Of a stretch of DNA of 64,000 bases, positions 1,314 through 48,900 are shown in pieces. The notes under the pieces were generated by a model that saw nothing but the letters and a program-made list of their open reading frames with translations, was not told the origin of the DNA and made no database searches. The stretch spans positions 2,626-66,625 of IMG/VR virus record IMGVR_UViG_3300045988_183936; one strand, given 5' to 3'. The stretch comes from a virus. The stretch's first letter is position 1, and the number at the start of each line of letters is the position of its first letter. The translations under genes and the position numbers were made by a program.

Positions 1314-1343
1314 AAAAAGCTCCCTTCGGGGAGCTTTTTCTTT
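1314..1343 (+). terminator. intrinsic terminator
   Basis: aaaaaGCTCCCttcgGGGAGCttttt hairpin followed by a T-run. Confidence 0.7.
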
Positions 1344-1354
1344 ACCTGAAATCA

Positions 1355-1549
1355 TTGACAAAACATCAAACTGTGGTAGTATAGAATTATAATTACGAAG
1401 CTATTTTTATAAAGGAGATTATCTCCGTTTTCCAAGTCACCTTAAAGAATCAAGACAGTTATCCCAATCTTGGGATGGCTGTCTTTTTATATATATACAT
1501 ACATTTGTGTTCCCGTAAGTCCTTCAAGGCTGGGAGAAAGGAGAAACAA
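1355..1549 (+). promoter_or_regulatory. repeated promoter-leader-terminator cassette, copy 1
   Basis: TTGACA(1355)-16nt-TGgTAGTAT extended -10. Leader palindrome GGAGATtATCTCC (1414-1426). Terminator hairpin agacagttatccc/gggatggctgtct (1453-1484) plus TTTTT. Conserved downstream block catacatttgtgttcccgtaagtcctt...gggagaaaggagaaa, then a GTG start. Confidence 0.75.
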
Positions 1550-6465: not shown

Positions 6466-6494
6466 AAGAGGCCCGAAAGGGCTTCTTTTTTTTT
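6466..6494 (+). terminator. intrinsic terminator
   Basis: aagaGGCCCgaaaGGGCttc followed by T9. Confidence 0.7.
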
Positions 6495-6506
6495 GGCTCT
6501 GTAATG

Positions 6507-6707
6507 ATTGACAAAATATCAAACTGTGGTAGTATAGAATTATAATTACGAAGCTATTTTTATAAAGGAGATTATCTCCGTTTTCCAAGTCACCATACGT
6601 AAATTCAGACAGTTATCCCGTTTCGGGGATAGCTGTCTTTTTTATATATTTTCATACATTTGTGTTCCCATAAGTCCTTATCATAGGCAGGGAGAAAGGA
6701 GAAATTC
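6507..6707 (+). promoter_or_regulatory. repeated promoter-leader-terminator cassette, copy 2
   Basis: Identical promoter TTGACAaaatatcaaactgtggtagtatagaat. Leader hairpin cagacagttatcccgtttcggggatagctgtct (6606-6638) plus T-run, with compensatory changes relative to copy 1. Confidence 0.75.
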
Positions 6708-7271
6708 ATGACTGACTATCCTAATGAAATTGCCCGTTTAGACGCACAGCGTCGAAAGAATCACGATGCCACCGCCTATGAGGAGCTTGACAAGGCCTAT
6801 ACCGAATCCGGTCATACCGTGTTCATTATGGCACTCAACGCCCTCATTTCGCTGGGACGTGATACCGTCGCGGCCATGGCGCATCCTGCGGCTATCGCTG
6901 CGACTATCCAAGGGAACATCTTTTCCGAGGATTTCAAGCTGGAGGTCGGACGTATCGCACTGATGATGGCAAACGCCGACATCGACGTTCTGTTGGCCGT
7001 TATTCAGCGCATAGTCGTCCCCTTCACTGACCCTCAGGGCAAGCGCATCCCGTTCCTGCACCCCAACGGCGACGAGGAGGACGTCTGCCCCGTGTGTGGC
7101 GCCGAGGTCGAATATCAGGGCGACCGTGAAATCGACTACAACGATGGTACGGAGGTGAGCTGGGAATGCCCCGTCTGCAAGGCGTTTGGCAAGGCACTGT
7201 ACCACGACACCTTCCTCCAGCACGATTCTGTGATTGATGGGAATGGTGATTGCGTACACGACCGTGTCTGA
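6708..7271 (+). CDS. hypothetical protein with C-terminal CxxC...CxxC zinc ribbon
   Basis: gggagaaaggagaaattcATG RBS. CPVCG...CPVCK motifs. Confidence 0.55.
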   Translation: MTDYPNEIARLDAQRRKNHDATAYEELDKAYTESGHTVFIMALNALISLGRDTVAAMAHPAAIAATIQGNIFSEDFKLEVGRIALMMANADIDVLLAVIQRIVVPFTDPQGKRIPFLHPNGDEEDVCPVCGAEVEYQGDREIDYNDGTEVSWECPVCKAFGKALYHDTFLQHDSVIDGNGDCVHDRV

Positions 7272-7313
7272 GCATTCCCGCACGCTATACTCAAGAAGAA
7301 AGGAGAAAGCACC

Positions 7314-7937
7314 ATGACCAAGAACTTCAAGACGGTCGTTGAAGCCCTGAACGAGACCGGCTTCTATCTGGCCTTCTGCAATCTTGTCGTAAACAAGATT
7401 GTAAGAATCCCCATCAAGAAAATTATCTCCGCTGCGGAGGGAAACATTGATGGCATTTCCAACTGGCTGGAACACGCTGCGAAAGATGCCTGCTCCGCCT
7501 TTAATCAGGACGTCCCCATCGACGACCTGATTATGAAGCTGGAGGGCGAGATTCTGCGTGTCACCCATTTCTGCTTTGACCCCCGCATCCGCGAGGCTTT
7601 CAAAGAGATGGGCTATGAGCGCATCGCAGAGGTGTACGAGTCCCGTGGCATCGACATCGAGGACACCGGTATGTTGGAGAAGGTCAAGAGCGTGTTCTGT
7701 ACCTACGTCTTTCTGCTGAACCAGCAGGATAAGACGCTTGGTATCGACCTCTCCGTTGTCCCTTCTGTGGGTTCCTACAGCATTCGTTTCAACGAGTGTA
7801 TTCAGGACTCCATCGTATTCAAGGACGAGGCGGCAGCGAAAGCATTTGCCAAGGCAAACGGATTGGAGAAGCCGTTCATTTCCTTCTACAAGATGACTGC
7901 TTATTGGCAGCCCTTTGAGGAAGGAGATGCGGTGTGA
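7314..7937 (+). CDS. hypothetical protein (207 aa)
   Basis: agaagaaaggagaaagcaccATG RBS. Confidence 0.55.
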   Translation: MTKNFKTVVEALNETGFYLAFCNLVVNKIVRIPIKKIISAAEGNIDGISNWLEHAAKDACSAFNQDVPIDDLIMKLEGEILRVTHFCFDPRIREAFKEMGYERIAEVYESRGIDIEDTGMLEKVKSVFCTYVFLLNQQDKTLGIDLSVVPSVGSYSIRFNECIQDSIVFKDEAAAKAFAKANGLEKPFISFYKMTAYWQPFEEGDAV

Positions 7938-8377
7938 GCACTTCTCAGACCACTTCCCTGCCGCTTGCTGCTGTCCGCATCAAGAATGCACGATTGTCTC
8001 TGGAACTATCCCAGAGCCAGCTTGCAGAAAGGTGTGAGGTGACACCGCAGACCATCTACAAGTATGAGTCTGGGCGAGTGGAGAATATCCCCCTGAAGAC
8101 TTTGGAACGCTTCGCTGAGGTGCTGGGCGTCTCCCCTGCTTATCTGGCGGGCTGGACGAACTCACCTGCCGGCACCAGCGTTCTGGATATTCAGGTACGA
8201 GGAGCGACTCTGCTCTGTGCCACATGTCCCATCTGCGGAAGCCTGAAGTTCGGCCCGAAGCACGGAAGTGCCTATGGACCCGAAGCCCGTTGCTCCGACT
8301 GCGGTACAACATTCCGCCTCGATGCCGACCAGTTTCCTCTGAAGACTGTTCGGCTTGGTATGTCACTGCTGGCCTGA
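7934..8377 (+). CDS. XRE-family HTH regulator with C-terminal Cys4 zinc-ribbon
   Basis: LSQSQLAERCEVTPQTIYKYESGRVENIPLKTLERFAEVLGVSPAYLAGW, then CATCPICG...CSDCG. Confidence 0.55.
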   Translation: MSTSQTTSLPLAAVRIKNARLSLELSQSQLAERCEVTPQTIYKYESGRVENIPLKTLERFAEVLGVSPAYLAGWTNSPAGTSVLDIQVRGATLLCATCPICGSLKFGPKHGSAYGPEARCSDCGTTFRLDADQFPLKTVRLGMSLLA

Positions 8378-8411
8378 TAGCCAGCTTTTTTGAAAAGAAA
8401 GGAGAAAAAAC

Positions 8412-8837
8412 ATGACTATCACCCGTAATATTCCGATTCCCGACCCCAAGGCCACTATCACTGTCGAAATCGAGCTGACCCGCAGCGAGCTGGAGACCGC
8501 GTACCGTGAACAGGAGCGATACTACCGGCTGATGGATGCGGAAGGCCAGCTCTGCACGTATCTGGGTTTCGATGTCATCGACTTCGACCCCGATAACGAG
8601 GACGACGCCGAGAAGCTGGAGAGCTTCAAGGAAAAGTTCGGTGACACTGAGCCGGCATCTCTGGTCGATGAGGAGTCTCCGAACTATGTGCTGAACGATA
8701 TCGTCGCTCAGTTCGAGCACGATGCCGACTGCAACAATGACGTGAACTCCACGTGGCAGAACGCCGTCGAGGAAGTGCTGAACATCCTGCAGGCACGTCT
8801 CAACTACGAGGCGGTCAGCGGCGGTGATGAGGCATGA
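8412..8837 (+). CDS. hypothetical acidic protein (141 aa)
   Basis: gaaaagaaaggagaaaaaacATG RBS. Confidence 0.5.
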   Translation: MTITRNIPIPDPKATITVEIELTRSELETAYREQERYYRLMDAEGQLCTYLGFDVIDFDPDNEDDAEKLESFKEKFGDTEPASLVDEESPNYVLNDIVAQFEHDADCNNDVNSTWQNAVEEVLNILQARLNYEAVSGGDEA

Positions 8838-9154
8838 GCCTTCTGAGATTTCCTGACAAGCGTTATCTCAAGAACGCCATTTGCGGCACTGTCACGTTGC
8901 TGCCCATTGCGGTGGTAGACCCGGAACCTTGTGTTGTCTCTGCGAGACTGTATCCGCATCGCTATGATGGTGCGGCACTGTATCGTTATATCGTAGTGGA
9001 TGCGGAGAACATCGGCATTATCTACGATGACGCGCAGGGGTACGGGTACAAGAACGCTGAGGCCGCAAAACGAGCGTTTTCACACAAGTATCGCGGGATG
9101 TTTCCGTTCAACTATGTGTGGCCTCCCGTGCGGGAAGCCGAATTTTACGAATAA
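8834..9154 (+). CDS. hypothetical protein (106 aa) sharing a DDAQG(Y/F)GY...AAK(R)A(F/Y) motif with the minus-strand gene 30537..30935
   Basis: Start overlaps the previous stop. Motif YRYIVVDAENIGIIYDDAQGYGYKNAEAAKRAF. Confidence 0.45.
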   Translation: MSLLRFPDKRYLKNAICGTVTLLPIAVVDPEPCVVSARLYPHRYDGAALYRYIVVDAENIGIIYDDAQGYGYKNAEAAKRAFSHKYRGMFPFNYVWPPVREAEFYE

Positions 9155-9216
9155 CACAGAAGCCCCTGCGTCCTCTCTTTTTGGAGAGGACGCGGGGTTG
9201 AAAGGAGAAAAAACTA

Positions 9217-10022
9217 TGATAAGGGCTGTTGAGATGCCTATTTTGCATCGTGAAATCGCGGAGTTCCTCGACCCTCGCATCCATGAGGCTGCGCCGGGAA
9301 CTCCGTCGTTTGCACTGCATGGTTTTCGCATCGACGACCGCGAGTATGTGATGGACTGCCTGCCCACCGTGGGACTCATGGTGGGCTACCGCATCGTCGA
9401 GACCGGTGAACTGGTTTCAGCGCTGCAGTTCGACAAGGGTGTTTCTGAGGAAAAACAGATTTTCCATGCGTTGCTGTTTGCACCTTGTGCGAAATATCTG
9501 GCGACGAAAAACTGCGTGTCTTCCCTGCCTGACGGGTCGTATGGTGATATTGAGTGCTTCTATATCATCTACAAAAACCCTGAGGCACGATGCTGGCTGC
9601 CTCGCTGTGAGACTCCTGTCATCGGGGCCGGCAATGCCGAGCAGAGGTTCACGACAGAAGTGCGGCTGAATACGATGGATGGCTTTGTAAGCTATCTGTA
9701 TTTCGATTTCACAACCCGTGGCTCTTGCGGTACAAACTTCTTCAACTCCGTCTGCGATAACATTCAGCGTATGCTGCGTGAGGACTGGGACGCTCTGGCT
9801 GCCACTGTACCCGCCGTTTCTTACGATGCGGGAAGTGAAATTCTGTCCATTCCCTTCTCGAATGTAAATGGCGATTATACGCTGATGGATTTCGAGAAGA
9901 AGTGGGCAGGGGCGCATGAGCTCACCTCACTGGTCACGTCGATTCGGCTGGTCAAAAACGACATCACACTGTATAAAGACAGTCGTTTCGATGTGCCGGA
10001 AGTGGAGGTCGTCCATGAGTAA
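9217..10022 (+). CDS. hypothetical protein (268 aa)
   Basis: ggagaaaaaactATG RBS inside ORF 9000..10022. Confidence 0.5.
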
Positions 10023-10194
10023 GAAGGCTGATGACCGCGTATACAAAGTCAAAATCCAGCGGCCAATCTTCCCTCCCGATGCTCCGTTTCTGGCAATGAG
10101 CGAGTGCGGCTGCATCCAGCCGACACTTCTTCAGGCAACACCGGAGCTAAAGGGCCTGCTTGGGGAAAGGTTGACTATTCCAGCTTTAGTGTAG
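10018..10194 (+). CDS. small hypothetical protein (58 aa)
   Basis: ATGA overlap with the previous stop. Confidence 0.3.
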   Translation, partial: SKKADDRVYKVKIQRPIFPPDAPFLAMSECGCIQPTLLQATPELKGLLGERLTIPALV

Positions 10195-10199
10195 GGTCT

Positions 10200-11575
10200 A
10201 TATAAGGAGAATGAATAATTCTACAGAAAGGAGTGTGAACATTGGAAATCTATAGGGCTTACAAGCTGTGCATCAAACCCACAGAAGCTCAGGCAGCGGA
10301 GATTGAGAACACCTTCCGGTGCTGCCGGTTCGTATGGAACCATTTCCTTGAGCGGAAGTCCAAGGCCTACCAGCGCCGAGGCGAAAGCCTCTCATACTAC
10401 GGTATGAAGAAACTCCTGACGGAGATGAAGGTCTATCTGCCTTGGCTGGGTAGCTGTAACCGGCACGCCTTGAATTATACGATACAGAACCTCTGCGACG
10501 CCTACGACGGGTTCTTCCGTCGCTGCAAAAAAGGCAAAGGCAAGGTGGGATATCCGAGATTCAAGGGACGGAAGAATCCTAAGCAGAGCTTTACCACAGA
10601 TGGCTCGGTCATTGTGACCGAGAAGTTTGTCCAGATTCCCTCTATTGGGAAGGTAAAGCGCGGTAAGGATAAACGTGCCGTTACCGGGGTTCCGGTAAAT
10701 GTCACGGTGTCCCGCAGTGCCTCCGGTAAGTATTGGGCGTCCGTTCTTTGTAAAGAGAAGGTTGACCCTCTGCCGGAGCTGAACGCGGAGGTTGGTATTG
10801 ACGTTGGGCTCCATGTATTTGCCGCCGACAGTGATGGCAACACCTACGAAAACCCTCACTGTTTAATCCATAGTGAGAAGCGGCTGGCTCGTGAGCAGCG
10901 TAAGCTGTCCCGTATGCGGAAGGGTTCTTCCAACTATGAGAAGCAGCGGCTCAAGGTAGCAACCATCCACGAACGTGTTGCAAACCAGCGTCGTGACTAT
11001 ACCCACAAGCTGAGTCGGAAACTCGTTGACGAGAACCAAGTCATCGCAGTGGAAGACCTCAACATCAAAGGGATGGTCAAGAACCACAAGAAGGCAAAGG
11101 CTGTGGCTGATGTCTCTTGGGCTGAGTTTTTCCGGATGCTGGAGTACAAGTCACTGTGGGCGGGACGCACATTCATCCAAATCGACCGGTTCTATCCCAG
11201 CAGCCAGACTTGCAGCTCTTGTGGCTACAAGAACGCCGCTGTGAAAGATGAAAAGGTTCGGGAATGGACCTGCACCCAATGCGGCGCACACCACGACCGC
11301 GACATCAATGCGGCAATCAATATTTTGAGAAAGGCAAAGGATACCTGCACCGCAGCGTAACCGGCATACCCTACTACGGCAGGATGAGCCGAAAGTTACG
11401 CCTGTGGAGACTGGTAAGACCTCGAACCTCACGGCGAGAGGCACGGTCTGCGAAGCAGGAATCGACCGGACGTGTGTACCTGAGAATTACCAATGCGAAT
11501 GGTATGTTCTTTCATGCTATGCATACGGAACACACAAAAGGTTGAATATCCGAACGCACGGGCGACGACTGGTGA
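10200..11575 (+). mobile_element. IS200/IS605-family (IS1341-like) TnpB-only insertion with a putative 3' omegaRNA region
   Basis: Complete tnpB is flanked by non-coding ends. No tnpA was seen. Boundaries are approximate. Confidence 0.5.
10242..11360 (+). CDS. tnpB: TnpB (OrfB) RNA-guided endonuclease, IS200/IS605 family
   Basis: N-terminal YKLCIKPTEAQ...RFVWNH. RuvC-like segments. C-terminal zinc finger CSSCG...CTQCG...DRDINAAINI. TTG start after an AAAGGAG RBS. Confidence 0.8.
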   Translation: MEIYRAYKLCIKPTEAQAAEIENTFRCCRFVWNHFLERKSKAYQRRGESLSYYGMKKLLTEMKVYLPWLGSCNRHALNYTIQNLCDAYDGFFRRCKKGKGKVGYPRFKGRKNPKQSFTTDGSVIVTEKFVQIPSIGKVKRGKDKRAVTGVPVNVTVSRSASGKYWASVLCKEKVDPLPELNAEVGIDVGLHVFAADSDGNTYENPHCLIHSEKRLAREQRKLSRMRKGSSNYEKQRLKVATIHERVANQRRDYTHKLSRKLVDENQVIAVEDLNIKGMVKNHKKAKAVADVSWAEFFRMLEYKSLWAGRTFIQIDRFYPSSQTCSSCGYKNAAVKDEKVREWTCTQCGAHHDRDINAAINILRKAKDTCTAA

Positions 11576-11592
11576 AAGAAAGGAGAAAAATT

Positions 11593-12177
11593 ATGGGACG
11601 TAAAGCAACTCGTTCCGCCGACGAAATCGCCATGAGCAAACAGAATATGTTCATCAGAACCGCTGAAAAGCGTGTTGGGCGTGTTCTGGACGGTCTGAAT
11701 ATGCTGGAGTGCCTGTCTACCCGTTATAGCGGATACTACACAGAAGAACAGGTCAATGCCATGTTCAGTGCCATCCGCAAGAAGGTGGATGAAGCCGAGA
11801 AGAGCTTCCGGACGAACGGGAAAACAAAGCTGTTTTCCTTTTCCGATGAATCCACTTCCTGCGGAGAGTTCAACCTCGAAGCCGGCGAGCGCATCGGTAT
11901 CTCGTTGAAGGTCATCAATGACTGCAATATGAGCGTAGCGCCCAACAAGCTGGAAGTTGAGACCTTCCCTGACGGCAGCGAACCGACTTACTATGAGCTA
12001 TTCAACAGCGAAGGTATGCTTTGCTGCTGTGATGGCGAGGTCGTCACTGTGGTACGCACCGGCGTCGATGAAAACGGCATTGCGGTGGCGTGGCTGTATG
12101 CCACTGACTCCAACGGTGAGACCGGGCCTGAGTTTTCTCTGCCCATTGAAGCTCTGAAGGTCGGCGTGTTCCGCTGA
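11593..12177 (+). CDS. hypothetical protein (194 aa)
   Basis: gaaagaaaggagaaaaattATG RBS inside ORF 11404..12177. Confidence 0.5.
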   Translation: MGRKATRSADEIAMSKQNMFIRTAEKRVGRVLDGLNMLECLSTRYSGYYTEEQVNAMFSAIRKKVDEAEKSFRTNGKTKLFSFSDESTSCGEFNLEAGERIGISLKVINDCNMSVAPNKLEVETFPDGSEPTYYELFNSEGMLCCCDGEVVTVVRTGVDENGIAVAWLYATDSNGETGPEFSLPIEALKVGVFR

Positions 12178-12196
12178 AAATGAAAGGAGAAAAAGA

Positions 12197-13603
12197 ATGA
12201 ATCATTTTTGCTACAACTCTTTATTCGGGTTTTCTGAGAAGGAGCTGGAAAAGATGGAAAACAACCACCGTATCGTAGTTGATGGCGACCTCATCGACTT
12301 CGCAAAGGCTTACGAGGACATCATGCAGAATGATGTTTTCGGGCAAATGTCCTGCCGGTTCGTTCCGGTTGAGAGCGACGAAAAAAAGAAGAAGGGCATC
12401 AAGATTTATGACAATGTTTTTCGGGCCTATGTGAAGGGACGCTGCTACGTGCTGCCTACTTCCGAGGTAAACGACGTTTTCTTCGCCGAATCTGAGAAGG
12501 GCGCTGTCGTGAATGTGACTGCCCCGGAACTGGCGGAGCTCTATATCCGTGAACGGCTGCATCAGACCAAAGAGAAGCTCATTCCGTTGTCTATGCTGGA
12601 GCTTCACCTTCTGCTGGTCATGGGCATCTGCAGTAAAAAAGATGGTAAGCCGTTTGGTAAGGACGGAAAGTGGCTGAATGGCTACATCAACGTCTACAAT
12701 GCGGCGACCTTCCCCGATTTGGTCTGCTACATCACCGGAAAGGACTGCAGCGTGGCACCGTTTGCCTCGTACACATGGAACGAGATTCTCGCCGTGTGTG
12801 AGGGCAACAACAATCTGGCTGTTCGGGTATTCAACGCGCTTCGGGAGGATGCGACACACTCGTGGACTCCTGAGGGAGTCGTTGCTTTCTTCACCGATTT
12901 AGGCACGGAGGACAGTGCCGGTGAGGATGACGATGGGGACGACCTCATCCACGTGGAGAAGCACTACGAGGTCTCTGGCGGTCTGGCGAAGGCACTCGGT
13001 TACGAGGGCGACCTGTTTGCCATGGACGTTGCGGATTTCAACCGCGTCTCTTCGCGGCTGGGGAATCTGCACTGCCTCGTCGAAGCTATCCCTGAAATCA
13101 TCCATGACAGAGACTTTAGTCGGTTTTCTTCCATGAGCATGAACGGCTACTGGAACGTACTCCTGAATTTGGCGCTGACCAATCTCATCGAGGACTTGCG
13201 TATCCATGCTATTGCACGTAACTCCGATACTGGCGTTGTCATTGATGTCGATGGCAAGAAGCAGGAAGTCACTGGCGGCAAGAATACCTCCAAGGAGGAG
13301 TCATCGGAAAGTGAAGCCTTCTGGGACTTCAAGACCATTTGGCTGTACTGCCGAACGGCTGATTTTGCCAAGGCAAAGGACCGTGAGATGTTGCGGACTC
13401 TTTGGGACAATATGGTTGAGGACCAGCACATCGTTCCAAAGAGCGCTGAGTACAAGCTGCTGCTTGTTAAGCTCTGGGGCATCTTGAATGCCGAAGAAAC
13501 CGATGGACATATCACTGCCGGCAATCGCCCCACTCTTATCCGCAATCGTTTTTTCGGATTCTGGGATGATTTTGCCAAGTTCATGGGTGAGCATCTTTCC
13601 TGA
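12197..13603 (+). CDS. hypothetical protein (468 aa)
   Basis: gaaaggagaaaaagaATG RBS. Followed by a terminator. Confidence 0.55.
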   Translation: MNHFCYNSLFGFSEKELEKMENNHRIVVDGDLIDFAKAYEDIMQNDVFGQMSCRFVPVESDEKKKKGIKIYDNVFRAYVKGRCYVLPTSEVNDVFFAESEKGAVVNVTAPELAELYIRERLHQTKEKLIPLSMLELHLLLVMGICSKKDGKPFGKDGKWLNGYINVYNAATFPDLVCYITGKDCSVAPFASYTWNEILAVCEGNNNLAVRVFNALREDATHSWTPEGVVAFFTDLGTEDSAGEDDDGDDLIHVEKHYEVSGGLAKALGYEGDLFAMDVADFNRVSSRLGNLHCLVEAIPEIIHDRDFSRFSSMSMNGYWNVLLNLALTNLIEDLRIHAIARNSDTGVVIDVDGKKQEVTGGKNTSKEESSESEAFWDFKTIWLYCRTADFAKAKDREMLRTLWDNMVEDQHIVPKSAEYKLLLVKLWGILNAEETDGHITAGNRPTLIRNRFFGFWDDFAKFMGEHLS

Positions 13604-13641
13604 AAACTTTTCACAGCAAAGCACTGATTTTTCCACTAAGA

Positions 13642-13672
13642 AAAGCTCCTTCGGGGGCTTTTCTTTTTTTCT
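13642..13672 (+). terminator. intrinsic terminator
   Basis: aaaaGCTCCttcgGGGGCtttt plus a T-run. Confidence 0.7.
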
Positions 13673-13756
13673 CAATTTTTGCTGAATTTGAAAGAAAGAA
13701 AACGCTCGAAAATGGCTTGGTTATGCGGTTTTCATGGACTATGTTTGTTCCTGTTC

Positions 13757-13872
13757 TCCCGACTAAAATCTCAAATTTTTATTCGGTTTTTCCCGACTAA
13801 AGTTTAGTTCTTAAAACTCTGATTTCCCGACTAAAATTGCAATTTGAAAATTCAGAAATCCCGACTAAAATC
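13757..13872. repeat. four direct iterons TCCCGACTAAA(A/G)T phased at exactly 34 bp
   Basis: cccgactaaa begins at 13758, 13792, 13826 and 13860, inside a 330-bp non-coding stretch upstream of cassette copy 3. Confidence 0.8.
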
Positions 13873-13918
13873 AAAAAACAGTGCAAATAGAGTAAACGCA
13901 ATTTGATACCTAAAACGA

Positions 13919-14096
13919 TTGACAAAATATCAAACTGTGGTAGTATAGAATTATAATTACGAAGCTATTTTTATAAAGGAGATTATCTCCGTTTTCAAGT
14001 CACCACATAAATTCAGACAGTTATCCCAATCTTGGGGTAGCTGTCTTTTTTTATATATTTATTGCATTTTTCGACAACAAAGAAAGGAGAAACACC
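13919..14096 (+). promoter_or_regulatory. repeated promoter-leader-terminator cassette, copy 3
   Basis: Same promoter and GGAGATtATCTCC leader. Hairpin cagacagttatcccaatcttggggtagctgtct (14015-14047) plus T8. Lacks the catacatttgtgttccc block. Confidence 0.75.
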
Positions 14097-14279
14097 ATGA
14101 AGTACAAGAAGCTCACCAAACATGAGCGAGACACGCACCCGTCCATTCACTGTACGGGCAGCGTGCGCGGCATGAAGGAACGTGGGTTGTGGGACAAGGA
14201 TGCCGAGTGTGTTCGCTGCGGCAACCACATCTACAACCTGTCCGTTACCATCCCGCCCTACCCTGCTGATGGCTGCTGA
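14097..14279 (+). CDS. small hypothetical protein (60 aa)
   Basis: aaagaaaggagaaacaccATG RBS. Confidence 0.45.
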   Translation: MKYKKLTKHERDTHPSIHCTGSVRGMKERGLWDKDAECVRCGNHIYNLSVTIPPYPADGC

Positions 14280-14312
14280 TGCAATCGACTTCAAAAGAAA
14301 GGAGAAATTATT

Positions 14313-14618
14313 ATGAATACATCTACGCTGCATTTCATCGACTGCACTCTGTCCACGTATCGGAACGAGCTGCTGTTCAACCCTTCCAACAAGATGCCTG
14401 CCCGTGAGGTCAACGACGCACTGAGCAAGCTACTGGAGCTGCCGGAGGTCTGCGGTAAGGTGCGCGATACCCTGACCACCCACCTGAACGACCGGCGTGG
14501 CTATGCCCGTGATTTGAGCAAGCCCGCGCCCACTGTCGCCGAGGTGATTACGTCCATGGAGTTCGCACTGGGTGCCGCATATGCGGCAGCAATGAAGAAG
14601 AGAGGTGAGCAGAAGTGA
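14313..14618 (+). CDS. hypothetical protein (101 aa)
   Basis: aaaagaaaggagaaattattATG RBS. Confidence 0.5.
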   Translation: MNTSTLHFIDCTLSTYRNELLFNPSNKMPAREVNDALSKLLELPEVCGKVRDTLTTHLNDRRGYARDLSKPAPTVAEVITSMEFALGAAYAAAMKKRGEQK

Positions 14619-14824
14619 GTAAGCATCGTTGGACTATCGAGGAACTGAAGAACGTCAATGACGCTCAGTTCGCTATGGCGATTCTGATGGAACGCCGCAG
14701 TGAGTTATCGAATCCCTACACCCCGTTCGCACAGCGCCTTACCAGCGTCATCAATACGCTGACGGACATGGCTGTGGATGGCGGGCTGACGGACGAAGAA
14801 AGGAGCAAGAACAATGGCTGTTGA
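14615..14824 (+). CDS. hypothetical protein (69 aa)
   Basis: Translationally coupled by a GTGA overlap. Confidence 0.4.
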   Translation: MSKHRWTIEELKNVNDAQFAMAILMERRSELSNPYTPFAQRLTSVINTLTDMAVDGGLTDEERSKNNGC

Positions 14825-15182
14825 GATGAGACTCTACCGCGTGCCTATTATCGGTAGTAATGCCGAACGGCGGCACGGAAAGGTGGTGGATGAGGTCACG
14901 GTCAAGGTTGGAACCAAGTGGCTGACAGACAATAGAGACTGTCGATACTACAAGGCTCCTTCCGAAGATGCGAACAGAAATCCCTACTTCCAGCAGAACT
15001 CCATGTACTGGAGTACAGATTACCGGCTGTATCAGACGGAACAGGCTGCCAAGGACTATCACCATCAGGCGGAATTGCTCATAGCTCTTCGCAGAGCCGT
15101 TGGCGACTTCGGCTTCAACGCCCCGTTGACCGTGTTGGAGAAGGTCATGGACATTCTCAAGGAAGGCGGGTGCCTGAAATGA
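14814..15182 (+). CDS. hypothetical protein (122 aa)
   Basis: Overlapping start. Same strand block. Confidence 0.45.
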   Translation: MAVEMRLYRVPIIGSNAERRHGKVVDEVTVKVGTKWLTDNRDCRYYKAPSEDANRNPYFQQNSMYWSTDYRLYQTEQAAKDYHHQAELLIALRRAVGDFGFNAPLTVLEKVMDILKEGGCLK

Positions 15183-15958
15183 GCACAAAAATCTTTGACG
15201 CTTGGCGCATCAACTCTACCGACATCGGGGAGTTGGTCAAGCTCGGCAGTGAGATTCGGGAAGTGCAGCGGAAGTCTTTCGTGGACGCTGTCTACAACTC
15301 GCTCGATTTCTGCCAGCTCGCCATCATCTTCGCCAAGAAGTCTGTAGAGGATGTTGAGGAGCTCAGACCTGTTTTTGCTTCAATCGCCGCAAACGTCGTC
15401 CATAAGTGTGTTCTGATGTACGACTGGACGCCGTCTTTTACGATGACGGATGGCGCCAAAAGCTCTGCGGAACAGATTCTGCAGAAGGAGGCTCAGAAAC
15501 GGAAGATTTCATTGACAGTAGAGCAGAAGAGAAATCTGCTCGACGTTATCACTGAAATCTACGAAATCGTCTCCCGTGATTGGCAAGCGTCACTGCTGTT
15601 CCTTAGGGGCGATAATGGCAGTACCTACATGAAAGGGTTCAATCTCACCAGAGAAGCGGCCCATTTCATCGACTCCCAATATCCCCGCTTTGAGTACACC
15701 GACCAGACGGAGATGAATATTTCAGACTTCAACGAGTACACACGGCAGTACATTGACGCTGCAAAGACGGAAGAAGAACGCTATGAGAGGCTCTTGGAGG
15801 CCCAGTGCGAACGTGGAGAACTGTGGGACAAAGCATTCGCAGGCCAAAGTGTATGGCGCGATGCCGGTCTCTCCGTCTCCCTCGTGCCGGCACAGCTTCA
15901 GGAACAGTTCGTGGCTATTCATTCCATCTGCAAAAAGGTGTTCGGTGTCGAAGCCTAA
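15170..15958 (+). CDS. hypothetical protein (262 aa)
   Basis: Overlapping start. Confidence 0.5.
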   Translation: MPEMSTKIFDAWRINSTDIGELVKLGSEIREVQRKSFVDAVYNSLDFCQLAIIFAKKSVEDVEELRPVFASIAANVVHKCVLMYDWTPSFTMTDGAKSSAEQILQKEAQKRKISLTVEQKRNLLDVITEIYEIVSRDWQASLLFLRGDNGSTYMKGFNLTREAAHFIDSQYPRFEYTDQTEMNISDFNEYTRQYIDAAKTEEERYERLLEAQCERGELWDKAFAGQSVWRDAGLSVSLVPAQLQEQFVAIHSICKKVFGVEA

Positions 15959-15982
15959 CGAAAAAAAGAAAGGAGAAAAATC

Positions 15983-16624
15983 ATGGAGAATAACCAAAAA
16001 AACGCTGCGGAGGTCGAGACCAGCGTTCCTGACCTGATTCCGTCCAACTACCGCGAAAAGGCAGAAGCACTGGGCTGGGTCATCGACGAGGACAAGGTTT
16101 GCGGAGTATTCACCTTCAGGCAGGGGTCGCCTGCCGGCGAGGACTATTCCTTCGACCTGTACGCCGACGATGACTTCAGCGACGGTGTGGCTGCTGCGGT
16201 GCGCCGTGTCTACGATGACTTTGACATCGACGAACACGTTGGACTGTTCGCAGAGGCTTCTATGAGAGGTGAGTCCGGCGTTCCGAAGCTGTCGATTCTT
16301 GTCGATGACGCTAAGGAAATCGACGAGATGCTTCTCACGCTCGCCGAAGCGTTTGAAGACATCGAATCTGATACATCAGAGCGGGAGCAGAAGGCATATA
16401 CCCGCTGCTGCCCCAACTGTGGTGGCGTATCTTTCTCTGGTCATCAGGTCCTCCACATTGATGTGTTGGTTGACATCGAAACGGGAGATTTCCTCGGAAA
16501 TATCAACGACGAAATCGAATCTAACATCTACGAGTCGTCTGACCCCTACGGTCCATATCACTGCATGACCTGCGGATTTGAATGCGACAACCTTTCCGAG
16601 CTGGAAAAGAGCGAGGTGGAGTAA
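15983..16624 (+). CDS. hypothetical acidic protein with zinc-ribbon (CPNCG...CMTCG)
   Basis: aaaaaaagaaaggagaaaaatcATG RBS. Confidence 0.5.
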   Translation: MENNQKNAAEVETSVPDLIPSNYREKAEALGWVIDEDKVCGVFTFRQGSPAGEDYSFDLYADDDFSDGVAAAVRRVYDDFDIDEHVGLFAEASMRGESGVPKLSILVDDAKEIDEMLLTLAEAFEDIESDTSEREQKAYTRCCPNCGGVSFSGHQVLHIDVLVDIETGDFLGNINDEIESNIYESSDPYGPYHCMTCGFECDNLSELEKSEVE

Positions 16625-16629
16625 CTCTA

Positions 16630-16791
16630 ATGTCGATTATTCTTTACTTCGCACTGACCATTCTCGTGATGTGCGGCATATTCCTTGGCATAAGGAGACT
16701 GGACACACAGGACCTCTTGCCGCCAATCATCTGCAGCGTTTCTGTGGGCGTTATTATGGTGGAACTGTTCGCCCTTGTTCGGTGGTATTAA
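16630..16791 (+). CDS. small hydrophobic membrane protein (53 aa)
   Basis: ATG immediately after the previous stop. Two predicted TM helices. Confidence 0.35.
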   Translation: MSIILYFALTILVMCGIFLGIRRLDTQDLLPPIICSVSVGVIMVELFALVRWY

Positions 16792-16813
16792 CGGAGGTGA
16801 AGGACGTGTTCAA

Positions 16814-16982
16814 AATGCTGACGAACCCCTTGTTTATAGCCTATGTCGTTCTTATCATCGCCGCAATGGTCGTCTCAGTCATAGCCGCAAAAAAATCAGA
16901 CCAGCCAGAAATGCTTCCGGCTGCCTTTGGTACTATTGCGCTCACCATCGTTTTGGTTATTGTAGCGGTCATAACCGGTTAA
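16814..16982 (+). CDS. small hydrophobic membrane protein (56 aa)
   Basis: GGAGG RBS then ATG. Hydrophobic. Confidence 0.35.
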
Positions 16983-17050
16983 ATTAAAGCCAGCGGGAGG
17001 GGCGCTCTGCCTCTCCCCTGCTTAAAAAAGAAAAGGAAGGAGATATTCGA

Positions 17051-17269
17051 ATGGCATACAGCATTGCTGAAATCGCGGCCATCAAAGCGGAGTATCCCGC
17101 AGGCACAAGAATCAGACTGAAACACATGGACGAAAGCAAGTTTCCTGTGGCAGACGGCACGACCGGTAAAGTCACTTATGTGGACGATAACGGCCAGATT
17201 CATATGCGTTGGGATAATGGCCGCACGCTGCCGCTCGTTCCGGGCGTCGATGATTTCGACAAAATCTGA
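17051..17269 (+). CDS. hypothetical protein (72 aa)
   Basis: aaggaaggagatattcgaATG RBS. Confidence 0.45.
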   Translation: MAYSIAEIAAIKAEYPAGTRIRLKHMDESKFPVADGTTGKVTYVDDNGQIHMRWDNGRTLPLVPGVDDFDKI

Positions 17270-17299
17270 GCTGTTTTTTCAAAAAGAAAGGAGAAAAAT

Positions 17300-18341
17300 T
17301 ATGGGTAATACATCTATCAGAGCCGCTGCATCTTTCTGCAACGAGAACACGCTGGTCAAGGTCTACCGCTATAATCCTAAGTACGACAGGTTCGAGACGA
17401 CCTTCGTTCCTTTCAAGGACATCCGCAAGAGCGATTCTGTGAGCGTCTTTGCCAGTGATGGGCACGAGATGCACTTTTCCGTTCTCACAAATGCTTCTTT
17501 TAAGAAGGACGAGCGATACGGGAACGAGTGCGGTTGGTCTGTGAAAGTCACTGAGGACGGCGGCAAGACGGAGATGGTTCTTCGTCCCACCGATTTCGCG
17601 CCCTACATCATCAGCCTTTCCGTTACCGACGAAGGAGAGTGGCGCGGCTGCCGGCTACTTTTCGAAAGCGTCCTCAACGACACCGAAGCTATCGTCAACA
17701 ATATGCGGGCGCGATTCGAGCCGCGTGTTGCGCCGGAAAACACCTGCGGGCGGCATTCCGACACAGTTGCGGCCATGGCGAAGAGAGACCTTACTCGTGA
17801 GTGGACGGAGCAGTTCGGCTTCCGGCTCATTTCGGACAGCGTAAACTTCGCCCAGTGCAGTGTGAAGGACATTCTCTCTGATAAGTTCTTCAATCCCCCT
17901 GCCATGGAGTTGACGTTCTTCGCCTATTCCGACGGCGAGTATTCAGCGTCCCCCCTGTTCTTTGCCAAACTGCCCGATTTGGGCGAACGGTACAACAAGC
18001 CTGAGGGACGTGCTGCAATCGCAGAACTGCTGCAGAAGCTGGATGAGATGTACGGCGACCTGCCTGAAGACACAACAAAATGGGCTCTGGAGTATCAGCT
18101 TTGGGCTCGTATGCTGCTGGCAGAAGGTGCGGTCATGCTGAATCCGAAGCACCTCGACCTCCCCGACTGCGCCTACGAATTCAAAACGCTGGCTTTCGGT
18201 AATAAAATGCTGAAAGACAGCGGTGACGGTATTGCGTGGGCAAAGGCTGTCAAAACACCTATCAGCGTAATCGCCGAGGCGTGGGAGAATGACATGAGTG
18301 AGTCCGGCGATGAGGCTTTTACCTGCATCGTGACGGGCTGA
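17300..18341 (+). CDS. hypothetical protein (347 aa), paralog A
   Basis: aaaaagaaaggagaaaaattATG RBS. Shares FFAKLP..LG, EYQLWARMLL.EGAVMLNPK and DILSD(K/R)FF blocks with the next gene. Confidence 0.55.
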
Positions 18342-18355
18342 AAGGAGAAAAACAT

Positions 18356-19408
18356 ATGGATATGCCGATTTCGAACAAGCGAAAGCTGCACTGCGACGAG
18401 AACGTACTGGTCCACATCGTGCGTTACTGCCATGATACGGATGACGCAGATGGCGACGGCGTCAGAGAGGTGGAAATGTACGTCCCCTTCAAGCACATTT
18501 GCAAGGGCGATGCCATTGATATTCCTGATAAGGACACCGACGATGCCTTCAGAACAACCGCCTATGCTGCGGAAAACGCTTCGTACAACGAGGCTAAGGC
18601 GGGTGGTTGGTTTGTGCCGGTCGCCTGCACTGGGCAGAAAGATTACATTCTGAAGCCCGACGATTTCGCACCTTGGCTCGTGACACTGAGCGTTGTGTTC
18701 ACGAACGGGTCGTCCTGCAAGCTCTTTTTCGAGTGCGTGGAACGAAGCGAAGAGAAGCTGCGGGCAAACATCCGCAGAATCTTTGACGATGTGCCGACGC
18801 TGCGGCATGAGCTGGGCTTCGTTGCCCTCGTCCGCCATATGGCATGGAAGTACCTCACACCGGAAAGAACGGAGCCTCTCGGCTTCAGATTCCTTTCGGA
18901 TGATGTCGTCTGGAGCAACTGCAAAGTGAAGGACATCCTTCCTGACCGGTTCTTCGCGGCGGCTGACATGAAGCTGACGTTTTACGCCTATGCGGAAGAT
19001 GAGTATTCTGGGAATCCTCTGTTCTTTGCAAAGCTGCCGTATCTCGGTACGCATCACGGACATCCTGAAGGTTGTGTGATTTGCGCTTCCATCCTGCGGA
19101 AACTGGATGAGCTGTATGGCGACCTGCCGACGGAAGCGTCCCGTTGGTCGCTGGAATACCAGCTCTGGGCGCGTATGCTGCTCTCTGAGGGAGCAGTTAT
19201 GCTCAATCCGAAGTACGTTGACTTGCGCCAAGACGGTGCGCTTGATGCGCTTCTGGAGGACATTCCGATGATTGATGGTTTCGCCGATGACGTCGCTTGG
19301 CGTCGTGTGGCAGGTGTACCCATCGACGAAATCCATGAAGTGTGGGATGCGAGTTCGGATGATGGTGTCGCTCCGTTCACCTATACCGTCCGAGCAAAAA
19401 TCCTTTGA
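18356..19408 (+). CDS. hypothetical protein (350 aa), paralog B, in tandem with 17300..18341
   Basis: gaaaggagaaaaacatATG RBS. Conserved C-terminal two-thirds, divergent N-terminus. Confidence 0.55.
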   Translation: MDMPISNKRKLHCDENVLVHIVRYCHDTDDADGDGVREVEMYVPFKHICKGDAIDIPDKDTDDAFRTTAYAAENASYNEAKAGGWFVPVACTGQKDYILKPDDFAPWLVTLSVVFTNGSSCKLFFECVERSEEKLRANIRRIFDDVPTLRHELGFVALVRHMAWKYLTPERTEPLGFRFLSDDVVWSNCKVKDILPDRFFAAADMKLTFYAYAEDEYSGNPLFFAKLPYLGTHHGHPEGCVICASILRKLDELYGDLPTEASRWSLEYQLWARMLLSEGAVMLNPKYVDLRQDGALDALLEDIPMIDGFADDVAWRRVAGVPIDEIHEVWDASSDDGVAPFTYTVRAKIL

Positions 19409-19442: not shown

Positions 19443-19474
19443 AAGAAGCTCCTTCGGGAGCTTCTTTTTTTTTA
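19443..19474 (+). terminator. intrinsic terminator
   Basis: aagaAGCTCCttcgGGAGCTtc plus T9. Confidence 0.7.
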
Positions 19475-19486
19475 CAGCAAAAGCGA

Positions 19487-19690
19487 TTGACAAAATATCA
19501 AACTGTGGTAGTATAGAATTATAATTACGAAGCTATTTTTATAAAGGAGATTATCTCCGTTTTCAAGTCACCACAAAGAATCAAGACAGTTACTTCCCTT
19601 TTCTGGGAAGTGACTGTCTTTTTCTATATATAACATTTTTTGGATTCCCGTAAGTCCTTATTACAGGCTGGGAGAAAGGAGAAAAAGACC
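19487..19690 (+). promoter_or_regulatory. repeated promoter-leader-terminator cassette, copy 4
   Basis: Same promoter and leader. Hairpin agacagttacttcccttttctgggaagtgactgtct (19585-19619), fully compensated relative to copies 1-3, plus T-run. Conserved ggattcccgtaagtcctt...ggctgggagaaaggagaaa block. Confidence 0.75.
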
Positions 19691-30935: not shown

Positions 30936-31100
30936 ACAAGCTCATCGCCCTTCCACCGATTTTAGTAGTCATGCTCATGTTCCCCCAAGGCACTCTCACC
31001 TCGGCGCTGCGCCGCCTCTCACGCAGCATTCAGCTCATGGCAAGTTCCTGCTTCAGCGACGGAGTTCGTCTCCACAGGCGTAAATTCCGGTTATACCATC

Positions 31101-31137
31101 CGTACTTATTTTTTACTTTGCGTACTTATTTTTACTT
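31101..31137. repeat. tandem about 20-bp direct repeat (cgtacttatttt(t)tactttg x2) abutting the tRNA 3' end
   Basis: Seen at 31101-31120 and 31121-31140. Confidence 0.6.
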
Positions 31138-31225
31138 TGGCGGAGAGAGTGGGATTCGAACCCACGGATGTTTTCGCATCGCCGGTTTTCAAGACCGGTG
31201 CCTTCAACCGCTCGGCCATCTCTCC
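31138..31225 (-). tRNA. tRNA-Ser (anticodon TGA)
   Basis: Reverse complement GGAGAGATGGCCGAGCGGTTGAAGGCACCGGTCTTGAAAACCGG...GGGTTCGAATCCCACTCTCTCCGCCA. 7-bp acceptor stem, long variable arm, anticodon loop cTTGAaa, encoded CCA. Confidence 0.85.
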
Positions 31226-45930: not shown

Positions 45931-48900
45931 TTACTCGGCGAACTGCTCCTTCTTGCGACGGAACATGAACATCGCCGTAGCGCAGCAAGCGATGGCACTG
46001 AACGTACTCAGCATAGCCCACAGGCCGATGCCTTCATCGCCGGTCTGGACGCTATCGCGGAAGTACACAGTCTGAGCACCGTCCATCAGGTCGTTGTGGG
46101 TAGCAATGACATTACCCGCCTCAGCACGACCCTCATACAGAGTCTCGAACACCACGAGCGCATGGTCCTTCAGCTTGGATGCGTCGAACTTGAACGTAAC
46201 ATTCACAGCCCCGTTGGAGGACTTGGGCGTAAAGGTCGTGGTAGCCGTTACCAGATTCCCCTTATTGTCCTTGAGGGCAACACCGGAATCCTTATCCATC
46301 AGCGTACCAACCAGCACGTAGGTCTTGCCCACAGTCAGGCCGGTGTAGTTGACGGTGTCCACGATTTTCACGTTCTTGCCAGCCACGGAGTTCTTCTTGT
46401 CCTTGCCGTCGAAGGTGGCAGTCGTAGAGATGCTCGGACCGGAATAGGTCGGGATGCGCTTGATAGTCACGGTCTGGTCAACATCGTTGATGTCGGTGTG
46501 CGTAGCGACCGTAGTGCCATTGCGGGTCAGAGTCTCGAACACGACCAGCGTCTTGCCACCCAGAATGGAGGCATCGAACACGAAGCTCACATCCACAGTA
46601 CCGTCAGAGGACTTGGCCTCGAACTCGGTAGTGGCGGTGATTTCCTTGTTGTTGCGGCCCAGAACAGGCTCACCTGTCGCCTTGTCCATCAGCTTGCCGA
46701 TTACGGTGTACTTATTGCCGGCAATCAGGCCCTTATAGGACACGGTATCGACCAGCTCGACCTTGCTGTAGGCCCAGAATTCCTTCTTGCCATCAGCAGC
46801 GTTCTTAGCGGAGGTCTTGATTTCAGGGCTGTTGACAGTCACAGTCTGGTCAACATCGTCGATGTCGGCGTGAACTGCGATTTCAATGTCCTTGTACTGC
46901 AGGGACTCGAACACAACGATAGACTGGCCGCGCAGCAGAGATGCATCGAGCACGAAGAACACGTCAACGGTGCCGTTGGACGCCTCAGCGGTGAAAGTAA
47001 CGGAGGAGATAATTTCCTTTCCGTCCTTATCCTTCAGGGGCTCGTTGGTGGCCTTGTTCATCAGCTTACCGGAAACAGTGTACTTCTCCCCAGCAATCAG
47101 GCCCTTATAGGACACGGTATCCTTGATTTCAGCGCGAGCTTCGGGGTCAAGAGTCTTGCCGTTGGTGGCGTTGTTCACGGCCTTGGTGCCGATTTCGGGA
47201 ACGCCGATGGTAACGGTCTGGCCCTCATCGTTGATGTCCTCATGGCTCACAAACACGGGCTTATCGGAGTCACCGGGAACAATCTCGTTGCCCAGATACA
47301 CACGCTCGAATACCACCAGAGACTTGCCGGCCAGCTCAGTGGCATTGAAGACGAACTTCACGTCCACAGTGCCAGTAGCCTGCTCAGGAGTGAACACCTT
47401 GTAGGCGGTAATGGGCTCGCCCTTGGCATCGGTGACGGGCTTGCCGGTTGCCTTATCCATCAGAGTACCGATAGCAATGAACTCCTTACCCACAGGCATA
47501 TTCTCATAGGAGATGGTATCAACCAGAATCACATCGTCCAGAGGCATAAATTCCTTGCCGCCGGCGGAGTTCTTCGCGGTAGTACCAATCTTGGGATTCA
47601 GGACGGTCACGGTCTGGTCAACATCGTTGATGTCGGCATGAGTCGCAACGACCTTCTCACCACGCTTCAGGTCCTCGAAAGCAACGAGGGACTCGCCGCC
47701 CAGCAGAGAAGCATCGAAGGTGAACTCCAGCTCCACATAGCCGGTAAAGTCGGCCTCGGCCTTGAAGGTCTTGGAAGCAGTGATGCGGTTGCCCTGAGCA
47801 TCCAGCAGAGGCTCACCAGTGGACTTAACCACCAGATAGCCCTCGACCGTATAGGTCTTGTTGGGGATGACATCAGTGCATTCCACCTTATCAATGATAG
47901 TGACGGAGGTGGAAGGAATGATTTCCTTGTTGCCGTCCTTATCGGTGGCAGTGGTCTTGACCTTGGGGGTCACGGCCTCATCCTCAGCGACGATGCTCAC
48001 GGTCACAAGACCGGTCTCAGCGTCCAGAGAGATGGTGTCGGGAGTGACATCAAAGCGGATGGGAGTGTCCATCAGCTCGTAGCCCTTGGGGGCCTTGGTC
48101 TCGACCAGATGATAGCCCTCGCCATAAGGCAGGACCAGAGGAGTCACAAAGTAACCCTCGTCATTGGTCACGAATGTATCAATATACTTGACAGTGGGAT
48201 AAGTGACCTTCTGAGACACCTTGTTGCCATCGGGGTCATAAATCTGGAATTCAGCGCCGCCCCAAGGAATGACTTCGCCATCGAACTCATCGACCTTCAC
48301 AACGCGCAGATACGCAGTGATGGGGCCGTTGTTGACAGCCAAATCATGATGGTCACGGTCAACTTCGCCAACCAGAACGGTGAACTCAGGCGCGAGCCCC
48401 GCACCCTTATCCCCGGCCTTGGTCTGATGCACCACATAGGTGCCGTAGGGCAGCTCGATGGACTTGCCGCTGTAACCCAGCTCATTGGTGGTCAGCGTAC
48501 CACGCTCGTCCTCCTTGGCGTTCTCATAGGAGCCAGCAGACTGCAGCCAGTAGATGAACTCAGCGCCGCCCTCGAACTTAGCGGGGCCGGAAGTGCCATC
48601 GGAGATGAACTTGGTGATAGCGAACGTACCACGGTTGATGACCTCAACAGAGGTAATCAGAGGAGCAGAGTTGTGCTCAATGGTGTAGTTCTCAGGCTCA
48701 GAACCAACGGGATACACGGTCTCGTCAATCTGATAGCCGGTAGGAGCCTTGATTTCACGGATGGTGTAATCGTAGCCGCAGTTGTACTCGTCGGTCGTGA
48801 ACGTGCCGTCCTTACCGATGACGTACTCCTTCACCAGCTCGTCGCCCTTATACAGACCATACACAGCACCCTCGAAAACGCCATCGCCGCGAGGAATGTC

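Follow-up and report, generated by a model that had tools for sequence, protein, structure and literature searches.

Organization of the repeat array

The DNA analysed here, called the window throughout, is a stretch of 64,000 nucleotides (nt) of the IMG/VR virus record IMGVR_UViG_3300045988_183936 (positions 2,626 to 66,625 of that record), and belongs to a family of large elements with contigs of up to 181 and 192 kb. We investigated an array of four short direct repeats located between two operons of the + strand. The upstream operon ends with an orphan gene coding for a protein of 468 amino acids (aa), followed by a terminator-like hairpin, and the downstream operon starts with the third copy of a cassette made of a promoter, a leader and a leader terminator. 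The 11-mer TCCCGACTAAA is present four times on the + strand, at 13757-13767, 13791-13801, 13825-13835 and 13859-13869, with a start-to-start spacing of 34/34/34 base pairs (bp). A preliminary description of this DNA had reported four direct repeats 34 bp apart; the matches are exact and the spacing stands, the starting positions given there being one base too high. Alignment of the four 34-bp units, in which the core was taken as the columns that are identical or purine-only, showed a block of 13 columns, TCCCGACTAAA followed by R and T, corresponding to a 13-nt conserved core TCCCGACTAAART. This core is asymmetric, without dyad symmetry. The array and its cores are as follows:

13746-13892, + strand: whole array with its A+T-rich, diverged spacers, from the unit alignment
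13757-13769, + strand: repeat core 1, TCCCGACTAAAAT, exact match over the 13-column block, invariant in all relatives
13791-13803, + strand: repeat core 2, TCCCGACTAAAGT, exact match over the 13-column block, compared in the relatives
13825-13837, + strand: repeat core 3, TCCCGACTAAAAT, exact match over the 13-column block, compared in the relatives
13859-13871, + strand: repeat core 4, TCCCGACTAAAAT, exact match, its 3' end 50 bp upstream of the -35 hexamer

Outside the core, the pairwise identity of the units is 38% compared to 31% expected from composition (permutation p = 0.004), and Tandem Repeats Finder gave no report of the array because the units are diverged outside the 13 columns. 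A weak second element was also found, with a C at -6 and a G at -4 relative to the core in three of the four units (TTCnG-like), which may extend each site to about 21 nt. A search for further copies of the motif, proposed in the preliminary description, returned none: with up to one mismatch, neither strand of the 64-kb window has a further copy of TCCCGACTAAA (0.85 expected), and the core, at the same tolerance, is absent outside the array from 458 kb of related DNA. The 493-bp gap that holds the array was simulated 50,000 times with a first-order Markov model; counting only non-overlapping and non-low-complexity 11-mers, an 11-mer was found four times in none of the simulations and three times in 12. 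A chance origin of the four equally spaced copies is excluded. No described relative of the motif was found in the literature, where the search gave only unrelated primer sequences, and no similar DNA in plasmid and phage collections.

The preliminary description had placed all copies on the same side of the helix, which does not hold. At 10.5 bp/turn, 34 bp correspond to 3.24 turns, with a rotation of about 86 degrees between successive sites and of about 257 degrees between sites 1 and 4; a shared face would need 11.3 bp/turn. Neighbouring sites, 34 bp apart, are separated by about 116 Å. If one complex forms on all four of these out-of-phase sites, the A+T-rich spacers must therefore bend, wrap or untwist.

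Conservation and dispensability of the array

The relatives compared were contigs encoding homologues of the upstream 468-aa protein, of which only seven close ones were present among 5.8 billion clustered proteins, together with IMG/VR contigs found from DNA patterns. Nearly all proteins of this element family are without known function, and the host elements form a 100-190-kb gut family, filed as viral in IMG/VR but looking conjugative or integrative. In the relatives that bear it, the array occurs once per element and always at this terminator-cassette junction, with a spacing of 34/34/34 in all those compared. The flanking DNA is 91% identical to the window in L001, 94% in L010 and 97% in L012. 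Among the window and the relatives, 13 columns are variable within 13746-13892, with none of them in the 44 core positions (P about 0.01). Since substitutions avoid the cores and the spacers vary, the comparison argues for a sequence-specific recognition site and not for a recent duplication; the cores and their spacing are under purifying selection, and the spacers drift. The final T of core 4 (13871) is replaced by A in L001. A local palindrome at core 2, ACTAAAGTTTAGT, is lost in the same relative and is thus not part of the conserved site.

Two close relatives are devoid of the array. In L006, the upstream operon is kept whole at 83-92% DNA identity and both operons are present, with 61 unrelated bp without repeats between terminator and cassette instead of the 236-bp segment that holds the array in the window. 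In L045, from a 174-kb contig, the downstream operon is 99% identical and preceded by an ordinary junction without array; the block 6491-13917, which corresponds to the operon between cassette copies 2 and 3 and includes the array, is absent, and a copy-2-type junction is found in its place. The array is therefore dispensable for the downstream operon and for the element as a whole. The sole co-variation found ties the array to the long C-terminus of the upstream protein, and is one contrast between lineages: the long 468-aa form is the only one seen with the array, and a short 371-aa form, without about 97 C-terminal residues, occurs without it in the L006 lineage. Clusters of the short form are larger (780, 116 and 7 members, versus 142 in the largest long-form cluster).

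The terminator-promoter junction and the cassette family

The array lies in a gap without open reading frames (ORFs) and rich in A+T, as the preliminary description had stated; its size is 493 bp (13604-14096) and not the 330 bp given there. The A+T content of the gap is 66.9%, versus 48.8% for the window. Its placement after a terminator and before cassette copy 3 was confirmed, with a hairpin at 13638-13665 and a cassette starting at 13902. The features around the array are:

12197-13603, + strand: upstream orphan gene (468 aa), last of the preceding operon, no Pfam or PHROG match
13638-13665, + strand: intrinsic-terminator-like hairpin with T run, ending the upstream operon, conserved in the relatives
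13666-13901, no strand assigned: lineage-specific 236-bp segment holding the array, from comparison with the other cassette copies and the relatives
13902-14052, + strand: cassette copy 3 (repeat family D9), with promoter, leader and leader terminator
14097-14279, + strand: first gene of the cassette-copy-3 operon (60 aa, Cys-rich), no Pfam or PHROG match

The promoter of copy 3, TTGACA-16-TGgTAGTAT at 13919-13946, is near-consensus with an extended -10, and the centres of the four cores are at about -191, -157, -123 and -89 from its likely start site. It is followed by an invariant leader of about 60 nt with a small hairpin, GGAGATTATCTCC, and by a leader terminator at 14015-14046 with a T run. 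Four 114-nt copies of the cassette are present in the window (1338-1451, 6491-6604, 13902-14015 and 19470-19583), each with a terminator about 30-50 nt beyond it. The cassette heads every + strand operon in the window, and at least 9-10 copies are found in each of the two largest related contigs. Promoter and leader are 100% identical between copies, and the terminator stems differ by compensatory changes. Nearly all copies abut the upstream terminator, which copies 2 and 4 follow almost directly; copy 3 is set off by 236 extra bp and is the only one with a repeat array in front. No Rfam family matched the leader. The shared leader cassette looks like the mark of a regulon under antitermination or attenuation, and this multi-copy cassette is arguably more unusual than the array itself. 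The repeated cassettes are apparently recombination substrates by which whole operons are added or deleted, and the loss of 6491-13917 in L045 is as expected from recombination between cassette copies.

Within the gap, a 31-codon hydrophobic ORF, MAWLCGFHGLCLFLFSRLKSQIFIRFFPTKV, at 13712-13807 (+) runs over cores 1 and 2. Of its three differences in L001, two are synonymous. With a weak ribosome-binding site, no promoter and a stop codon that moves in L001, it is probably not a gene.

Neighbouring genes and search for a binding protein

Among the genes from 6708 to 19408, Pfam and PHROGs gave no match except for an XRE protein, TnpB (10242-11360), DUF4314 and a weak ProQ_C-like match. The XRE gene (7934-8377) codes for an XRE helix-turn-helix with a C-terminal zinc ribbon and is located 5.4 kb upstream of the array. 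It belongs to the block lost together with the array in L045, and L006 keeps a 67%-identical XRE protein without array. An exhaustive phmmer/HMMER search against 1.84 billion representatives found no relative of the 468-aa protein beyond its own family. The AlphaFold model of the full protein is uninformative, with a pLDDT (predicted local distance difference test) score of 35, and that of the extra C-terminal domain is a helical bundle (pLDDT 69) with no significant match in the PDB. None of Pfam, PHROGs, phmmer and AlphaFold gave a positive sign of DNA binding by this protein.

The rest of the window codes for a second XRE protein, a zeta-toxin-like protein, an AAA_5/VWA pair, Fic, HD, flotillin-like and nuclease proteins and a topoisomerase III. 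About 90 representative proteins of the related loci, which cover part of the element, add a RecD2-like helicase, a large serine recombinase, YqaJ and SSB, together with a weak TraI_2 match, YopX and toxin-antitoxin pairs. No replication initiator, partition NTPase, ParB, terminase or single-subunit RNA polymerase was found in the window and in these sampled proteins. The earlier statement that none of the annotated features explains the repeats was upheld.

Several other features were noted in the window. The operon of cassette copy 3 ends in two adjacent orphan paralogues of 346 and 350 aa (17301-18341 and 18356-19408, +) without family match. Two giant ORFs on the - strand, 45931-51561 (1876 aa) and 53351-63979 (at least 3542 aa), carry many diverged repeats of about 276 and 375 nt; they are possible surface or adhesin-like proteins, which are typical cargo of Gram-positive conjugative elements. 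A SAF-domain protein and the topoisomerase III are encoded near them. Genes of RNA-guided-nuclease-type insertion sequences (IS) are polymorphic: the TnpB gene of the window lies between genes for 268-aa and 194-aa proteins, L001 has at the same place (7848-9332) a 494-aa RRXRR (IscB-like) gene, L003-L005 have TnpB inside the 468-aa gene (from about 11139 in L003), and L006 has none. Just after the TnpB gene, 11375-11411 matches 31068-31104 in inverted orientation over 37 nt (78%), and may be a second IS end or a guide-RNA remnant. The latter segment adjoins an element-borne tRNA-Ser(TGA) (31138-31225, -) and is itself flanked by a 20-nt tandem repeat at 31091-31139.

Other tests of function

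The nearest DnaA box with up to one mismatch is at 13536, inside the upstream gene, and none was found in 13604-14096. The flanks of the array have 70-78% A+T, a value shared by other junctions and by the promoter itself. The cumulative GC skew climbs evenly past 13.8 kb; its only turn is near 29 kb, at the point where the genes change orientation. Folding of 13740-13900 was no better than that of shuffled sequences for either strand (z = -0.80 and -0.82), which points to recognition at the DNA level. A structured or repeat-bearing RNA was accordingly discarded, the palindrome of unit 2 being moreover not conserved and Rfam giving no match.

Further candidates were discarded in the same way. 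The -10 of a candidate sigma-70 promoter within the array (TTGAAA-16-TAAAAT, 13844-13871) is lost in L001. An inverted fifth site at 13110-13123, considered for looping, is a 14-mer with synonymous changes in other array-bearing relatives, hence a chance match. A CRISPR array does not fit a conserved unit of only 13 nt, spacers that are kept between relatives, a number of units that is not variable and the lack of cas genes, the sole CRISPR-related gene nearby being TnpB, 2.4 kb away. A transposon end or arm-site was rejected because there is no inverted partner array in the sampled DNA and no adjacent tyrosine recombinase or transposase. Finally, no core with up to two mismatches overlaps the promoter or lies downstream of it, so that the arrangement of a repressor operator of the CI, XRE or Rco kind was not found.

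Similar arrays in other DNA

The scan of metagenomes for three phased cores gave 90 loci, of which only L226 is this element, and the genome-collection scan with a loose, variable-gap pattern gave more than 120 unrelated low-complexity or CRISPR-like repeats. In looser IMG/VR scans, all matches with three TCCCGAC besides this element and one other contig, L273, were G+C-rich and unrelated. L273 (IMG/VR contig 3300029000_000146, positions 1680-1836) has four units of GGGAAnnTTCCCGACAYCTAAA (TTCCCGACAYCTAAA) with a spacing of 46/34/34 bp, located after a PriCT_2+AAA_25 primase-helicase gene and before RusA, in a module that also contains AAA_24 and a SNF2-type helicase. This is the classical place of a phage or satellite origin, and the array of L273 is likely a phage origin of replication. 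Both arrays are A+T-rich and non-coding with a 34-bp period, their cores are alike (TTCCCGAC...CTAAA versus TTCCCGACTAAA), and L273 is also a human-gut-type viral contig. L273 differs by a palindrome, GGGAAnnTTCCC, by three extra core bases and by its canonical phage replication module, and it shares no proteins with the element. Since the search pattern itself fixed the period and half of the core, we consider L273 an analogy and not a homologue.

Two unrelated kinds of arrays were met in these scans. Metagenome contigs L186/L263, L195/L232, L196, L256, L235 and L240, of low G+C, bear a separate family of arrays. Each has 3-4 units of 32-33 bp, in which a core of about 22 bp, AAAA-AGTCCGACTAAAAAGTGTA, is conserved and about 10 bp vary. 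These arrays are immediately upstream of genes whose products have the N-terminus ...RKPL(I/V)L(Q/R)GARQVGKTW... and which we take, by eye, to code for a P-loop ATPase resembling AAA_14/DUF4143; we know of no description of such arrays. On marine viral contigs (L267, L268 and L271 from IMG/VR; L182, L192, L200, L202, L218, L223, L228, L253 and L254 from marine metagenomes), copies of (T)CCGACTAAA in both orientations form dense, irregular clusters of about 1-1.5 kb, which may be promoters of T3/T7-class phages or an origin region.

Discussion

Direct-repeat protein-binding arrays are of a well-known kind in mobile elements. The idea that the repeats are a genuine, selected array of this kind agrees with cores that are invariant within the array and in the relatives, with spacers and flanks that vary, and we put the probability of a selected array of predicted protein-binding sites at about 0.8. 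As to its function, for which the preliminary description had named Rep-initiator origins, centromere-like sites and regulator arrays, an upstream control or insulator module is ranked first, with an iteron-type accessory origin a close second and the other explanations lower; a promoter-linked regulatory or insulating role is thus proposed tentatively. The array has the same direction as the promoter of copy 3 and is confined to the only expanded terminator-to-promoter junction. It is ranked as a control or insulator module because it is attached to one promoter, co-oriented, confined and dispensable, dispensability being as expected of a modulatory add-on.

In such a module, a single sequence-specific DNA-binding protein, most likely a product of the element, would recognise the four cores. 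Because the core is without dyad symmetry, a monomer or a unit bound asymmetrically would occupy each site, and protomers on neighbouring sites would touch only if the A+T-rich spacers were bent or wrapped. One nucleoprotein complex may then extend over about 115-140 bp, roughly from -195 to -85 relative to the start of promoter copy 3. Only some lineages would have this control module, joined to a single one among the many identical promoters of the element. From its upstream position it could adjust initiation through wrapping or counter-silencing or, as another option, form a protein barrier that insulates the operon from read-through or antisense transcription at the terminator-promoter junction.

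Several observations weigh against a control or insulating role. No binding protein was identified, the only recognisable DNA-binding gene in the flanking operons being the XRE-zinc-ribbon gene, and XRE proteins usually bind palindromes. A near-consensus promoter with an extended -10 should need no activator. The last core ends 50 bp upstream of the -35, with none in or after the promoter, and no second operator for looping was found, the inverted 14-mer at 13110 being not conserved. Out-of-phase spacing of 34 bp is unusual for cooperative transcription factors. Lastly, the co-variation ties the array to the long form of the upstream gene and not to the downstream operon.

The array could instead be an accessory origin of the iteron type. 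An initiator, which could be the orphan 468-aa upstream protein, would bind the repeats and the A+T-rich DNA beside them would melt, aided by transcriptional activation from the strong neighbouring promoter. At least three direct repeats are present, as four asymmetric, conserved cores in A+T-rich non-coding DNA, in a single array per 100-190-kb element that starts about 150 bp after the stop codon of the lineage-restricted long-form gene. In SaPI and SCCmec, which are integrative elements of Firmicutes, short iterons also lie directly downstream of the initiator gene (PMC7581432). L273, the only A+T-rich analogue in IMG/VR, has its array at the 3' end of the primase-helicase gene, but most of this likeness comes from the search pattern, and L273 has no proteins in common with the element. 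No Rep, helicase, primase or helix-turn-helix signature is present in the 468-aa protein itself, its homologues are all of its own family, the extra C-terminal domain was modelled as a generic helical bundle without significant structural match, and no recognisable initiator is adjacent among the genes 6708-19408 by Pfam and PHROGs. The gap is also without DnaA box, and the cumulative GC skew has no inflection at 13.8 kb. Finally, the array is absent from the close relatives L006 and L045 and is not retained family-wide, which weighs against an essential origin or centromere. We consider such an accessory origin a doubtful possibility. It is unlikely that the array and the long-form protein are a new initiator-origin (or adaptor-centromere) pair which confers autonomous replication or segregation on one lineage. 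If true, this pair would give a largely unannotated gut Firmicutes element of ~190 kb a capacity without counterpart in its sister lineages, and would found a family of DNA-binding initiators without detectable relatives, with 13-bp sites at a 34-bp spacing that forces wrapping.

The remaining explanations are less probable. In a partition centromere of the parC, parS or tubC kind, a binding protein would coat the repeats and couple the element to a segregation NTPase. The single-copy direct-repeat array with conserved cores and strict spacing lies just upstream of an operon promoter, which is the usual place of type Ib, II and III centromeres (R1 parC, pSK41 parC, pBtoxis tubC). This promoter, however, belongs to the generic cassette, of which the element has at least 9-10 copies, and no ParA, ParM/actin-like or TubZ/tubulin-like NTPase, ribbon-helix-helix or ParB-like protein was found in the flanking operons and the sampled element. 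Known ParR, TubR and omega sites are contiguous 7-20-bp repeats, not 13-bp cores with 21 variable bp; besides, the array is missing in relatives, and a large serine recombinase makes the element probably integrative. A centromere is thus improbable. No more probable are accessory sites for DNA processing, whether bound by accessory proteins of a relaxosome at a transfer origin or used architecturally by a recombinase or excisionase. Unique intergenic direct repeats and the TraI_2-like, RecD2-like, topoisomerase III and large serine recombinase genes of the element are compatible with them, but no relaxase, recombinase or small ribbon-helix-helix gene is adjacent, no nick-site-like inverted repeat is present besides ordinary terminators, and the sampled DNA has no inverted partner array; serine recombinases are not known to use arm-type sites. 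A decaying tandem duplication without function is very improbable: the slight excess of spacer similarity (38% versus 31%) is compatible with an old duplication, but a neutral remnant would not keep 4 x 13 nt identical beside 21-nt near-random spacers, nor would it dodge all 13 substitutions among the relatives. Least probable of all is a set of four promoters in tandem, used by a dedicated RNA polymerase or sigma factor. Positions -10 to -1 of the T3 promoter, which is of the T3/T7 class, resemble the core (CCCTCACTAAAG for the core versus CCCGACTAAAG), all four copies point in the same direction as the genes, and dense TCCGACTAAA clusters occur on marine viral contigs. Against this, neither the window nor the sampled element revealed a single-subunit RNA polymerase, the motif is confined to the array and stands at no other operon start, 13 nt are conserved and not about 23, and the sigma-70-like match at 13844-13871 loses its -10 in L001.

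The 140-bp array, which is conserved, unique and easily synthesised, is a practical bait for its binding protein, and a handle for asking whether the element replicates, segregates or switches one operon. A control or insulator module, if true, would show how individual control is given to one unit of a multi-copy promoter regulon.

Comparison with known systems

Among operator arrays, the closest comparison is with the upstream arrays of Gram-positive conjugation switches, Rco of pLS20 (operators OI/OII) and PrgX of pCF10. There, as could be the case here, an XRE-family regulator of a large conjugative element binds repeated motifs upstream of the main promoter. Rco and PrgX differ by a second, promoter-overlapping operator, by looping and by clustered motifs of about 7 nt; the window lacks a site close to the promoter, and its XRE gene lies in the middle of an operon, 5.4 kb from the array. 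Centromere repeats (R1 parC, 11 bp x10; pSK41 parC, 20 bp x4; pBtoxis tubC, 12 bp x7; F sopC, 43 bp x12) are contiguous or conserved over the whole unit, with adjacent genes for a partition NTPase and an adaptor, none of which is found here.

Iteron origins share with the array about four direct, asymmetric sites beside A+T-rich DNA. The lambda origin has four 19-bp O-binding iterons, RK2, pSC101, R6K and F have iterons of 17-22 bp at about 22 bp, and the IncN plasmid pCU1 has 37-bp repeats; transcription from a nearby promoter can activate lambda and plasmid iteron origins. Their iterons are typically about two turns apart and in phase, with an adjacent winged-helix Rep gene and often DnaA boxes, and none of these was found here. 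In PLE elements, RepA_N iterons define the origin (PMC7145576). In the Rep/ori system of SaPI and the Cch2/ori system of SCCmec, the iterons lie directly downstream of the initiator gene (PMC7581432), and the likeness consists in short direct repeats at a single locus, in conserved non-coding DNA right after a gene of the element. In those systems the repeats are needed for specific protein binding. The upstream gene is there a recognisable helicase and the iterons are of 5-8 nt and closely packed, whereas the array described here follows an orphan gene without NTPase motif and is an optional one, with 13-nt cores at 34 bp.

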